Assembly: GCA_964016885.1 (NCBI GenBank) | Contig: OZ024746.1 | Coordinates: 49,786,001-49,850,000 of the forward strand | Source of the DNA: Eledone cirrhosa | Taxonomy: Eukaryota | Direction of reading: 5' to 3' | Length of the DNA stretch: 64,000 nt | Shown here: piece by piece, positions 27,734-33,135 of the stretch | Layout: each line of letters opens with the position of its first letter | How positions within the stretch are numbered: position 1 is the first letter of the stretch | Program-made: the position numbers and the translations under genes | Notes under the pieces: generated by a model | What the model was told of the DNA's origin: nothing | Database searches by the model: none | The model's input: the letters and a program-made list of their open reading frames with translations, nothing else

Positions 27734-28038
27734 ATAAATTGAAACAAAATGAAAACGAAATTTCATTTCTCACTCTTAGTATGGCACTTACTTAAATGTA
27801 AGTATGCATGTATACGTACATACATATATGTATACAGACGTACAGTAGCATGCACATATATATATATATATATACATATATACATACATATGCATACAGG
27901 TACACATACATATATGCACGTATCAGTTTAGCGGCGCTAACGTCGCTTTGTTCGTTTGTAAACAAACTGAACAGCCTGAATTTATGCCATACGGTGTTAA
28001 GGCAACCACGTCACCTTTTTGTTCAACACTGACACAGG

Positions 28039-28083
28039 AACGATGTACTAGTTTCAAGCTTGTTAGCTATCATCAGCACCGTT
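28039..28083 (-). ncRNA. Minimal type I HHR of the 468-bp unit (minus copies at 28039, 28507, 28975, 33412)
   Basis: Reverse complement of the 29462-29506 motif. Confidence 0.85.
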
Positions 28084-29461
28084 TACCCATCTGCCAGATA
28101 GTTGAACGTTCGAAAGTATATACTTTCCTTATGAAAATTAACGGCTGAGCAGCCTAATTTGCATATTGAGTGAGTTAAATCGGTCAGGCATACCGAAAAC
28201 GATAAATTGAAACAAAATGAAAACGAAATTTCATTTCTCACTCTTAGTATGGCACTTACTTAAATGTAAGTATGCATGTATACGTACATACATATATGTA
28301 TACAGACGTACAGTAGCATGCACATATATATATATATATATACATATATACATACATATGCATACAGGTACACATACATATATGCACGTATCAGTTTAGC
28401 GGCGCTAACGTCGCTTTGTTCGTTTGTAAACAAACTGAACAGCCTGAATTTATGCCATACGGTGTTAAGGCAACCACGTCACCTTTTTGTTCAACACTGA
28501 CACAGGAACGATGTACTAGTTTCAAGCTTGTTAGCTATCATCAGCACCGTTTACCCATCTGCCAGATAGTTGAACGTTCGAAAGTATATACTTTCCTTAT
28601 GAAAATTAACGGCTGAGCAGCCTAATTTGCATATTGAGTGAGTTAAATCGGTCAGGCATACCGAAAACGATAAATTGAAACAAAATGAAAACGAAATTTC
28701 ATTTCTCACTCTTAGTATGGCACTTACTTAAATGTAAGTATGCATGTATACGTACATACATATATGTATACAGACGTACAGTAGCATGCACATATATATA
28801 TATATATATACATATATACATACATATGCATACAGGTACACATACATATATGCACGTATCAGTTTAGCAGCGCTAACGTCGCTTTGTTCGTTTGTAAACA
28901 AACTGAACAGCCTGAATTTATGCCATACGGTGTTAAGGCAACCACGTCACCTTTTTGTTCAACACTGACACAGGAACGATGTACTAGTTTCAAGCTTGTT
29001 AGCTATCATCAGCACCGTTTACCCATCTGCCAGATAGTTGAACGTTCGAAAGTATATACTTTCCTTATGAAAATTAACGGCTGAGCAGCCTAATTTGCAT
29101 ATTGAGTGAGTTAAATCGGTCAGGCATACCGAAAACGATAAATTGAAACAAAATGAAAACGAAATTTCATTTCTCACTCTTAGTATGGCACTTACTTAAA
29201 TGTAAGTATGCATGTATACGTACATACATATATGTATACAGACGTACAGTAGCATGCACATATATATATATATATATACATATATACATACATATGCATA
29301 CAGGTACACATACATATATGCACGTATCAGTTTAGCGGCGCTAACGTCGCTTTGTTCGTTTGTAAACAAACTCACTCAATATGCAAATTAGGCTGCTCAG
29401 CCGTTAATTTTCATAAGGAAAGTATATACTTTCGAACGTTCAACTATCTGGCAGATGGGTA

Positions 29462-29506
29462 AACGGTGCTGATGATAGCTAACAAGCTTGAAACTAGTAC
29501 ATCGTT
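29462..29506 (+). ncRNA. Minimal type I HHR of the 468-bp unit (first of 8 plus copies, every 468 bp to 32738)
   Basis: AACGGUG-CUGAUGA-UAGCU AACA AGCUU-GAAA-CUAG-UA/CAUCGUU; predicted cleavage after 29499; stem I extends via CUGGCA/UGUCAG and GUUCAAC/GUUGAAC. Confidence 0.85.
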
Positions 29507-32500
29507 CCTGTGTCAGTGTTGAACAAAAAGGTGACGTGGTTGCCTTAACACCGTATGGCATAAATTCAGGCTGTTCAGTTTGTTTACAAACGAACAAAGC
29601 GACGTTAGCGCCGCTAAACTGATACGTGCATATATGTATGTGTACCTGTATGCATATGTATGTATATATGTATATATATATATATATATGTGCATGCTAC
29701 TGTACGTCTGTATACATATATGTATGTACGTATACATGCATACTTACATTTAAGTAAGTGCCATACTAAGAGTGAGAAATGAAATTTCGTTTTCATTTTG
29801 TTTCAATTTATCGTTTTCGGTATGCCTGACCGATTTAACTCACTCAATATGCAAATTAGGCTGCTCAGCCGTTAATTTTCATAAGGAAAGTATATACTTT
29901 CGAACGTTCAACTATCTGGCAGATGGGTAAACGGTGCTGATGATAGCTAACAAGCTTGAAACTAGTACATCGTTCCTGTGTCAGTGTTGAACAAAAAGGT
30001 GACGTGGTTGCCTTAACACCGTATGGCATAAATTCAGGCTGTTCAGTTTGTTTACAAACGAACAAAGCGACGTTAGCGCCGCTAAACTGATACGTGCATA
30101 TATGTATGTGTACCTGTATGCATATGTATGTATATATGTATATATATATATATATATGTGCATGCTACTGTACGTCTGTATACATATATGTATGTACGTA
30201 TACATGCATACTTACATTTAAGTAAGTGCCATACTAAGAGTGAGAAATGAAATTTCGTTTTCATTTTGTTTCAATTTATCGTTTTCGGTATGCCTGACCG
30301 ATTTAACTCACTCAATATGCAAATTAGGCTGCTCAGCCGTTAATTTTCATAAGGAAAGTATATACTTTCGAACGTTCAACTATCTGGCAGATGGGTAAAC
30401 GGTGCTGATGATAGCTAACAAGCTTGAAACTAGTACATCGTTCCTGTGTCAGTGTTGAACAAAAAGGTGACGTGGTTGCCTTAACACCGTATGGCATAAA
30501 TTCAGGCTGTTCAGTTTGTTTACAAACGAACAAAGCGACGTTAGCGCCGCTAAACTGATACGTGCATATATGTATGTGTACCTGTATGCATATGTATGTA
30601 TATATGTATATATATATATATATATGTGCATGCTACTGTACGTCTGTATACATATATGTATGTACGTATACATGCATACTTACATTTAAGTAAGTGCCAT
30701 ACTAAGAGTGAGAAATGAAATTTCGTTTTCATTTTGTTTCAATTTATCGTTTTCGGTATGCCTGACCGATTTAACTCACTCAATATGCAAATTAGGCTGC
30801 TCAGCCGTTAATTTTCATAAGGAAAGTATATACTTTCGAACGTTCAACTATCTGGCAGATGGGTAAACGGTGCTGATGATAGCTAACAAGCTTGAAACTA
30901 GTACATCGTTCCTGTGTCAGTGTTGAACAAAAAGGTGACGTGGTTGCCTTAACACCGTATGGCATAAATTCAGGCTGTTCAGTTTGTTTACAAACGAACA
31001 AAGCGACGTTAGCGCCGCTAAACTGATACGTGCATATATGTATGTGTACCTGTATGCATATGTATGTATATATGTATATATATATATATATATGTGCATG
31101 CTACTGTACGTCTGTATACATATATGTATGTACGTATACATGCATACTTACATTTAAGTAAGTGCCATACTAAGAGTGAGAAATGAAATTTCGTTTTCAT
31201 TTTGTTTCAATTTATCGTTTTCGGTATGCCTGACCGATTTAACTCACTCAATATGCAAATTAGGCTGCTCAGCCGTTAATTTTCATAAGGAAAGTATATA
31301 CTTTCGAACGTTCAACTATCTGGCAGATGGGTAAACGGTGCTGATGATAGCTAACAAGCTTGAAACTAGTACATCGTTCCTGTGTCAGTGTTGAACAAAA
31401 AGGTGACGTGGTTGCCTTAACACCGTATGGCATAAATTCAGGCTGTTCAGTTTGTTTACAAACGAACAAAGCGACGTTAGCGCCGCTAAACTGATACGTG
31501 CATATATGTATGTGTACCTGTATGCATATGTATGTATATATGTATATATATATATATATATGTGCATGCTACTGTACGTCTGTATACATATATGTATGTA
31601 CGTATACATGCATACTTACATTTAAGTAAGTGCCATACTAAGAGTGAGAAATGAAATTTCGTTTTCATTTTGTTTCAATTTATCGTTTTCGGTATGCCTG
31701 ACCGATTTAACTCACTCAATATGCAAATTAGGCTGCTCAGCCGTTAATTTTCATAAGGAAAGTATATACTTTCGAACGTTCAACTATCTGGCAGATGGGT
31801 AAACGGTGCTGATGATAGCTAACAAGCTTGAAACTAGTACATCGTTCCTGTGTCAGTGTTGAACAAAAAGGTGACGTGGTTGCCTTAACACCGTATGGCA
31901 TAAATTCAGGCTGTTCAGTTTGTTTACAAACGAACAAAGCGACGTTAGCGCCGCTAAACTGATACGTGCATATATGTATGTGTACCTGTATGCATATGTA
32001 TGTATATATGTATATATATATATATATATGTGCATGCTACTGTACGTCTGTATACATATATGTATGTACGTATACATGCATACTTACATTTAAGTAAGTG
32101 CCATACTAAGAGTGAGAAATGAAATTTCGTTTTCATTTTGTTTCAATTTATCGTTTTCGGTATGCCTGACCGATTTAACTCACTCAATATGCAAATTAGG
32201 CTGCTCAGCCGTTAATTTTCATAAGGAAAGTATATACTTTCGAACGTTCAACTATCTGGCAGATGGGTAAACGGTGCTGATGATAGCTAACAAGCTTGAA
32301 ACTAGTACATCGTTCCTGTGTCAGTGTTGAACAAAAAGGTGACGTGGTTGCCTTAACACCGTATGGCATAAATTCAGGCTGTTCAGTTTGTTTACAAACG
32401 AACAAAGCGACGTTAGCGCCGCTAAACTGATACGTGCATATATGTATGTGTACCTGTATGCATATGTATGTATATATGTATATATATATATATATATGTG

Positions 32501-33135
32501 CATGCTACTGTACGTCTGTATACATATATGTATGTACGTATACATGCATACTTACATTTAAGTAAGTGCCATACTAAGAGTGAGAAATGAAATTTCGTTT
32601 TCATTTTGTTTCAATTTATCGTTTTCGGTATGCCTGACCGATTTAACTCACTCAATATGCAAATTAGGCTGCTCAGCCGTTAATTTTCATAAGGAAAGTA
32701 TATACTTTCGAACGTTCAACTATCTGGCAGATGGGTAAACGGTGCTGATGATAGCTAACAAGCTTGAAACTAGTACATCGTTCCTGTGTCAGTGTTGAAC
32801 AAAAAGGTGACGTGGTTGCCTTAACACCGTATGGCATAAATTCAGGCTGTTCAGTTTGTTTACAAACGAACAAAGCGACGTTAGCGCCGCTAAACTGATA
32901 CGTGCATATATGTATGTGTACCTGTATGCATATGTATGTATATATGTATATATATATATATATATGTGCATGCTACTGTACGTCTGTATACATATATGTA
33001 TGTACGTATACATGCATACTTATATATATATATATATACATATATATATATATGTATATATATATATATATATATATATATATATATAGATATATATATA
33101 TATATATATATATATATATATATATATATATATAT

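Follow-up and report, generated by a model that had tools for sequence, protein, structure and literature searches.

The subject of this analysis is an insertion built from a 468-nt hammerhead repeat, found in a 64,000-nucleotide stretch of the Eledone cirrhosa genome (GCA_964016885.1, contig OZ024746.1, positions 49,786,001 to 49,850,000 of the forward strand), which we call the window. We suggest that it is a non-LTR (long terminal repeat) retrozyme insertion that was copied round an edited RNA circle, from both cut strands of its target, by a reverse transcriptase (RT) of the type found in Penelope-like elements (PLEs). Judging from sequence, we give PLE-type initiation and a circular template together a probability of about 0.62. 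The parts differ in strength: PLE-type initiation at two internal places appears very probable, a circular template seems likely, and the evidence for editing is real but moderate. The element is abundant and non-coding and carries an RNA motif predicted to cut itself; the insertion in the window is a very young copy of it. It has the sequence hallmarks of a non-LTR retrozyme and appears to behave like a non-autonomous passenger of PLEs.

Structurally, the insertion consists of one unit repeated in opposite orientations, 5' to 5', inside a (TA)n tract, see Table 1. Tandem Repeats Finder makes two calls, 27734-29372 (3.5 copies) and 29369-33022 (7.8 copies), both with the 468-nt unit. A first-pass annotation of this DNA had described a single 468-bp array; the unit length stands, but there are two opposed arms instead of one array, and this inversion, absent from that annotation, is the most informative feature of the locus. 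Both outer flanks are (TA)n, within which no target-site duplication can be read. Between 27734 and 33022 there are eight hammerhead cores on the plus strand and three on the minus strand (CTGATGA..GAAAC, with a GTA cleavage triplet). As had been annotated, each unit has one hammerhead core and a TA/CA-rich block of its own. The GC content of the unit is about 36%. Apart from TA-run frames at the edges, the array contains no frame of 150 aa or more, and the open reading frame (ORF) with RT and GIY-YIG that marks an autonomous PLE is absent from it.

We number the unit from the base directly 3' of the predicted hammerhead cut. All units at the locus are letter-identical save one substitution, at 28869, and the internal TA run (unit positions 173-190) is 18 nt long in 12/12 blocks, so its equal length in all copies, noted earlier, is confirmed. 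The left arm ends at unit position ~311, about 120 nt beyond the TA run, and the right arm at ~247, at the foot of the TA/CA block. The right end, which had been placed beside that block, lies 57 nt past the TA run itself. The predicted fold of the whole unit has a z-score of -9.0, and of -4.6 when the microsatellite block is removed. In the tail between the two end sites, the predicted fold places a small hairpin at the short site and an A/U hairpin ahead of the long site, together with one strand of a long-range helix.

The element is dispersed and occurs in high copy number, from monomers to multimers, as non-LTR retrozymes do. A 40-nt hammerhead word has 10,122 exact matches in the genome and its reversed control has 0, which excludes chance; since the matches are exact, 10,122 is a lower bound on the hammerhead copies of the family. 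A marker of the youngest subfamily has 4,372 matches. The first 100 hammerhead matches form 50 clusters within the first 70 Mb of contig C1, and their neighbour pairs within 3 kb are divergent in 14 cases and convergent in one. All 50 clusters together with the window make up our 51 loci; a second set of 48 loci was picked by end or subfamily patterns. The longest single arm of the 468-nt family has about 15 units. Part of the unit also occurs at low depth in twenty public runs, whose labels name 15 coded organisms and one wastewater metagenome. By default we read these as contamination, with index hopping and transfer as alternatives, and they are not used as evidence; the same holds for one foreign run in which the unit forms a single 470-nt self-joining contig at depth 7. 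None of the runs listed is of RNA, which speaks neither for nor against an RNA stage.

Among 90 arm 3' ends at the 51 loci, 43 fall at unit positions 300-315 (the long site) and 34 at 240-258 (the short site), while three lie in the TA run (165-195), one at the hammerhead and nine elsewhere. Of the 77 that fall on either site, 73 adjoin a TA flank. The 5' ends are spread widely, with 74/90 outside all named sites. Genome-wide, the long end followed by TA has 1,600 exact matches and the short end followed by TA 3,246, counts obtained with patterns that differ in degeneracy, and the hammerhead cut site followed by TA has 0 exact matches.

These counts speak against the proposal of the first-pass annotation that reverse transcription is primed by pairing of the internal (TA)n/TACA block with the genomic microsatellite. 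In its favour, the insertions target (TA)n, the block has the short site at its 3' foot, and the short ends fall on TA steps (8 at position 247, 30 at 249-250 and 21 at 253), where a pairing of 1-3 nt is plausible. However, the 3/90 ends inside the run are below the 6.6% share expected by chance for a 31-nt window, and 77/90 are at two other fixed sites. The sister family, B, argues in the same direction. It has a 466-nt unit with 2,537 exact matches, and 271/439 aligned bases are alike with the 468-nt family, A. The longest TA run of family B is 4 nt, against 18-56 nt in 12 units of family A. Family B nevertheless has a long hairpin at the corresponding place and ends in the same kind of (TA)n target at homologous sites, 228-233 and 300-302. 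Thus the internal run is not needed for targeting, and priming from it is very improbable. It is instead a microsatellite grown in the apex of a conserved hairpin, not a primer site. What is new here is this refutation of TA priming, by end counts and by a TA-free family, together with a fold that is conserved around the start sites.

Several helices are common to A and B with changes on both sides, namely hammerhead stems I and II and the hairpins at 28-47 and 73-98. The long-range helix that closes in the tail is also common to both families, and within family A it changes from U-A to C-G. As the sequences are related, these shared helices are descriptive and not a covariation statistic. In addition, a locus of family B (G000:C1:5738327-5752443; L188-L212, L221) has a 31-unit (14 kb) arm with a short end, opposed by an arm shorter than one unit.

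Each tandem unit carries a type I hammerhead with an intact core, as expected of a non-LTR retrozyme. Its parts are stem I (ACGGUG/CAUCGU), the core CUGAUGA, stem II (AGCU/AGCU, on a U-U pair), GAAA, a palindromic stem III (ACUAGU) and the triplet GUA. At the gathering threshold, Rfam has no match in the 64-kb window; the assignment is made from the motif, the stems and the paired changes with family B, and cleavage is a prediction. In 270 copies with at most 5 mismatches, many of them from loci chosen by exact match, G5, A6, G8 and A13-A15 are invariant, and the cleavage triplet is GTA in 271/274 copies of family A. Minimum free energy folds of the isolated hammerhead lack stem III and have a z-score near 0; the absence of stem III is expected, because this stem is weak. 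In family B the triplet is GTT in 36 and GTC in 33 of the copies counted.

The two end sites are used in combination. The abutting arm pairs at the 51 loci are divergent in 29 cases and convergent in none. Among the divergent pairs, 23 combine a long and a short end, one has two short ends, none has two long ends and five have an off-site end. Thus 23 of 24 on-site pairs are long+short, where about half would be expected if the ends were independent (p near 1e-6, by hand arithmetic). In the second set, 25 of 28 pairs are long+short and three have an off-site end, so that 48/49 pairs with both ends on site, in both sets, show the combination. Family B repeats the pattern: at 20 loci, 12/12 two-armed insertions with both ends visible and on site are long+short. 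The arms mostly overlap by 1-7 nt at their junctions, and two loci (L037 and L056) have junctions centred on palindromes. A first cDNA that simply folds back and is copied would not account for pairs in which either arm may be the longer, and this route was rejected.

An inverted 5'-truncated arm, a tail at one end and a microsatellite target are the marks of elements mobilised by PLEs. PLE insertions carry an inverted 5'-truncated copy at their 5' end and a tail at one end, and lie in microsatellite targets (10.1101/2021.04.23.441226). In vitro, a PLE protein that was purified and modelled as a dimer cuts both strands and extends them; its reverse transcription begins at two places within the RNA, on either side of the tail, and needs no homology to the target (PMC11167929). 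The insertions studied here bear the exact end signature that this purified protein makes, and the two start sites can be named to the base. The use of the short site on one strand and the long site on the other fits a PLE dimer. A young autonomous PLE family in the window and the neighbouring 310-nt hammerhead array have this two-arm anatomy as well (Table 1).

The identity between units bears on the number of templates. For 108 units of the youngest subfamily, from 24 loci, identical pairs make up 135/235 within an arm, 47/93 between the arms of a locus and 255/5,450 between loci. Identity within and between arms is thus far above that between loci, which bears out the earlier suggestion that one template was copied in one event. 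Unit length and haplotype are locus-specific (466, 468 or 476), and the locus with a 476-nt unit (L131) has four private variants in 6/6 full units over both arms. The cut-site junctions are seamless in nearly all young units listed. The constancy of the TA run had also been taken as a sign of single-step copying; it is real, but it reflects the youth of the locus, as older arrays vary from unit to unit (in L034 the AT repeats number 11/20/11/16/14). Since the run drifts between units in older arrays, its constancy here dates the insertion as very recent.

An alternative is that a short PLE-type insertion, of one or two units per arm, was enlarged in place by unequal crossing-over or slippage in the manner of a satellite. 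Local amplification of PLE termini has been proposed (10.64898/2026.07.22.740005), and a five-unit 94A>G block in L132 resembles local growth. However, opposed arms are as alike as units within an arm, the TA run is constant in the youngest and longest arrays and drifts in old ones, which is the reverse of slow growth, and the strand bias of shared changes described below needs an RNA step. Enlargement in place is therefore improbable. That the uniformity and the inversion are artefacts of assembly or library preparation, through consensus polishing or chimeric reads, is hardly credible. No public contig has been shown to span the junction, yet unit length and haplotype differ from locus to locus, the assembly retains heterogeneous arrays as well as changes confined to single units, and chimeras would not yield one short and one long end in nearly every on-site pair.

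A second line of evidence comes from what look like editing marks. ADAR is expected to leave an A>G bias on the sense strand of a double-stranded stem. We compared 154 pieces of the youngest subfamily from 29 loci, excluding the ambiguous positions 163, 171 and 173 and dropping pieces with more than 8 changes. In the hairpin, changes common to several units are A>G in nine cases and T>C in one, and singletons are A>G in one and T>C in three; the hairpin contains 39 A and 52 T. Outside the hairpin, the changes common to several units are one A>G and one T>C. At sister loci the TA/CA block bears A>G changes that run through the whole array, in all blocks of both arms (L075 6/6, L131 9/9, L134 6/6, L136 5/5 and L187 7/7). 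A 33-nt hairpin word away from the TA run has 7,130 genome matches with G allowed at its 8 A, against 6,967 with C allowed at its 12 T; in the first 100 matches listed, A>G occurs in 12 units (4 loci) and T>C in one. A mark filling a whole array is explained most simply if one edited monomer was read repeatedly.

Several observations weigh against our reading of the insertion. Six of the nine shared A>G changes are at 161-189, beside the TA run, where slippage of a TATG motif could mimic editing. The genome-wide A>G excess is only 163 units, taken without an exact-word baseline, and the locus in the window has no private editing mark. Only 8/47 two-armed loci have terminal hairpin blocks that match letter for letter from one arm to the other, although the differences are mostly in microsatellite length and mostly at older loci. 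There are mosaic loci (L080/81, L130, L132, L140 and L186), which one monomer circle does not explain unless circles of several units, switching between templates or changes at a later time are added. The PLE studied in vitro used mainly RNA that had not been cleaved (PMC11167929). In the two PLE families compared, no pseudo-LTR with homology to the unit was found, the matches being of low complexity. Finally, the RNA stage, the circle and the cleavage are predictions from DNA, and contigs cannot separate a circle from a tandem array.

Some of these points would suit a different template. The twin PLE-type start could have taken place on a linear uncleaved multimer, or on cut monomers by template jumps, with circles as by-products at most. 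The in vitro preference for uncleaved RNA agrees with this, as do the U-U at the base of stem II and the weak stem III, features of the slow axolotl monomers (PMC7229834). So do the mosaic arrays: in L130 the second block from the 3' end has 195A>G in both arms. A further point is that L035 and L172 have a 3-change haplotype in common; a two-change haplotype of L035 also recurs at one other locus. The mosaic 19-unit insertion L080/L081 (C1:69.578-69.587 Mb) has a three-unit motif (a 448C>T unit, 466, 458) in both arms, for which a trimeric circle or a linear multimer is a possible template. On a linear template, however, edits and mutations would strike single units, yet A>G and private changes fill both arms. 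Linear copying with 5' truncation can only shorten, yet arms reach about 15 units, and 31 in family B. The cut-site junctions are seamless in nearly all of the young units, and no arm begins at the cut site followed by TA. We therefore consider a linear template unlikely, and the circular one remains our preferred reading.

We propose that copying round a circle could have proceeded as follows. Arrays would be transcribed, cut by their hammerheads and ligated as monomers into circles, as in other retrozymes; cutting would probably take place in dimers, because the palindromic stem III is weak. The long TA/CA hairpin would sometimes be edited from adenosine to inosine (A-to-I), as the scars in the sequence suggest. 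At a (TA)n target, cDNA begins inside the RNA at two sites ~60 nt apart, one per DNA strand and with TA pairing of 1-3 nt only, a pattern that is seen directly in the ends and for which a PLE-type enzyme would be responsible. Each RT would then pass the hammerhead junction for any number of turns and halt at a random place. Joining of the two cDNA ends, in most cases across a 1-7 nt overlap, gives one long-ended and one short-ended arm, as observed.

It can be speculated, at somewhat less than even odds, that each array records in DNA a single circular RNA molecule, whose A-to-I edits are fixed in every unit, and that an RT dimer of the PLE type acts at two sites defined by structure. The fold conserved between A and B around these sites, with its long hairpin, its small hairpin at the short site, its long-range helix and its A/U hairpin ahead of the long site, would then be the recruiting signal in cis. 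If so, editing of the built-in microsatellite hairpin would be a source of heritable variation for the family. The enzyme that spreads animal retrozymes, and copying of a circle, have been proposed since 2020, and a demonstration was not found in the passages of the literature examined. If true, A>G marks that fill whole arrays would testify, at the level of the genome, to reverse transcription round an RNA circle.

The young autonomous PLE family in the window is a candidate source of the enzyme. It occurs at 36630-38802 and 44266-47490, with 150 scored matches at 98-100% amino acid identity and ORFs of up to 1,281 aa; the long inverted repeat at 44712-47419 is its two-armed insertion and no separate element. 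The 58-nt tail of this family lies at the start of the 1,280-aa ORF, within the first ~90 nt, as in PAc. The 1,280-aa PLE and the 468-nt unit have a common layout of hammerhead, AT-rich hairpin, short site and 58-nt tail. Pfam gives GIY-YIG at E 2e-4 for a C-terminal piece of the 1,280-aa protein and no match for the whole ORF, and a linker of the Neptune/Nematis type (CX4CxxC) is apparent by eye against the motif in 10.1101/2021.04.23.441226. At 61769-62948 (minus strand) and at L112-L116 there is an abundant PLE family of 834 aa, whose 3' untranslated region (UTR) contains AT-rich tandem repeats; a GIY-YIG fragment at 62493-62948 belongs to it. This family was rejected as the parent: with the pattern used, the 3' UTR of five long copies has no hammerhead, and the family B piece at 61427-61672 is an insertion there.

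Compared with known systems, the element resembles metazoan non-LTR retrozymes in being dispersed, non-coding and low in GC, with a strongly folding unit, one type I hammerhead in each and thousands of copies. The first-pass annotation had considered the unit unusually long. Published repeats measure 150-450 bp (Cervera and de la Pena, PMC7229834) and 51-972 bp (Li et al. 2026, 10.64898/2026.07.22.740005); 468 nt fits the latter range, and its size is not unusual. The palindromic stem III and the U-U at stem II are shared with axolotl hammerheads (PMC7229834). PLEs and circular templates have been proposed for the mobilisation of non-LTR retrozymes, as here (PMC7229834, PMC7761336, 10.64898/2026.07.22.740005). 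Two inverted arms, two fixed internal ends, (TA)n targeting and editing marks are unlike the passages describing retrozymes, and while a review states that no conserved motif points to a retrozyme partner (PMC7761336), here the ends point to the type of partner. In the portions of text covered, "inverted" and "microsatellite" occur 0 times in PMC7229834 and "editing" 0 times in PMC7761336. A two-arm or editing pattern in retrozymes was not found in the literature searched, which did not extend to supplementary material (Figure S9 in PMC7229834; tables in Li et al.).

The insertions are like those of endonuclease-bearing PLEs in their inverted 5'-truncated copy, one-end tail, microsatellite target and hammerhead upstream of the tail. 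As in PAc (PMC11167929), there are two internal RT start sites and both strands are used. Unlike PLEs as described in the passages cited, there is no ORF, the unit is the whole element, repeated up to ~15 times per arm, and the tail is ~60 nt and not 30-40. There is also no sequence homology to the two PLE families compared.

In twin priming of L1, both target strands prime cDNA and the arms are joined at short microhomology; the first primer is at the poly(A) end and the second at variable places elsewhere on the RNA. Unlike this, both sites are fixed and internal here, and both arms copy the same sequence many times. The cave-cricket hammerhead unit is ~500 bp. Tandem hammerhead repeats of a few hundred bases are also known as newt satellite 2 and from schistosomes and cave crickets (PMC7229834), but unlike those satellites the arrays here are short, dispersed instead of clustered, and have ends of the retrotransposon type.

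Table 1. Position and strand of the features discussed (window coordinates).
Feature	Position	Strand	Details
Different hammerhead family, 310-nt unit	23175..27301	.	two arms (7.7 + 5.6 units), short-ended on the left and long-ended on the right; tail of 35 nt
Left (TA)n target tract	27300..27733	.	
Left arm	27734..29372	-	3.5 units, 3 hammerheads; outer 3' end = long site, unit ~311, abuts (TA)n
Head-to-head junction	29369..29372	.	both arms 5'-truncated; 4-nt overlap AACT; unit positions 78 and 338
Right arm	29369..33022	+	7.8 units, 8 hammerheads; outer 3' end = short site, unit ~247, abuts (TA)n
Type I hammerhead, first of right arm	29461..29508	+	core at 29469; predicted cut after 29499 (GUA)
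TA/CA block, unit 119-246	29618..29745	+	predicted long hairpin; 18-nt TA run (29672-29689) near apex
Tail between short and long end sites	29747..29810	+	about 58-64 nt
Right (TA)n target tract	33023..33134	.	
Older-subfamily insertion of the 468-nt family	33135..33823	-	1.4 units, about 91% alike; short end at 33135; same TA tract
Two-armed insertion of young autonomous PLE family	44266..47490	.	58-nt tail on one arm only; TA flanks
Family B piece, internally deleted	61427..61672	-	ends at its long site; in 3' UTR of unrelated PLE

The surroundings of the insertion show that a single TA tract (23154-33930) took three or more hammerhead-repeat insertions in succession, among them the 310 array, the 468 array and the older 468 copy. 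As every insertion leaves TA on both sides, targets multiply. The tract is flanked by two pieces of ~290 bp (22860-23153 and 33931-34216), which have the same ~35-nt sequence facing the TA tract and are otherwise unlike; they may be terminal inverted repeats, or may belong to the ends of a different element that targets TA. Other families have hammerhead-like motifs at 39839-39864 (plus strand) and at L036, L047 and L147. Broken pieces of two further families with PLE-like RT and endonuclease are at 53647-54171 and 58237-59785 (minus strand). At the start of the window, 231-5237 (plus strand) is a long interspersed nuclear element, in which the translation, read by eye, shows a 625-aa ORF1 and a 998-aa ORF2 with endonuclease and RT.

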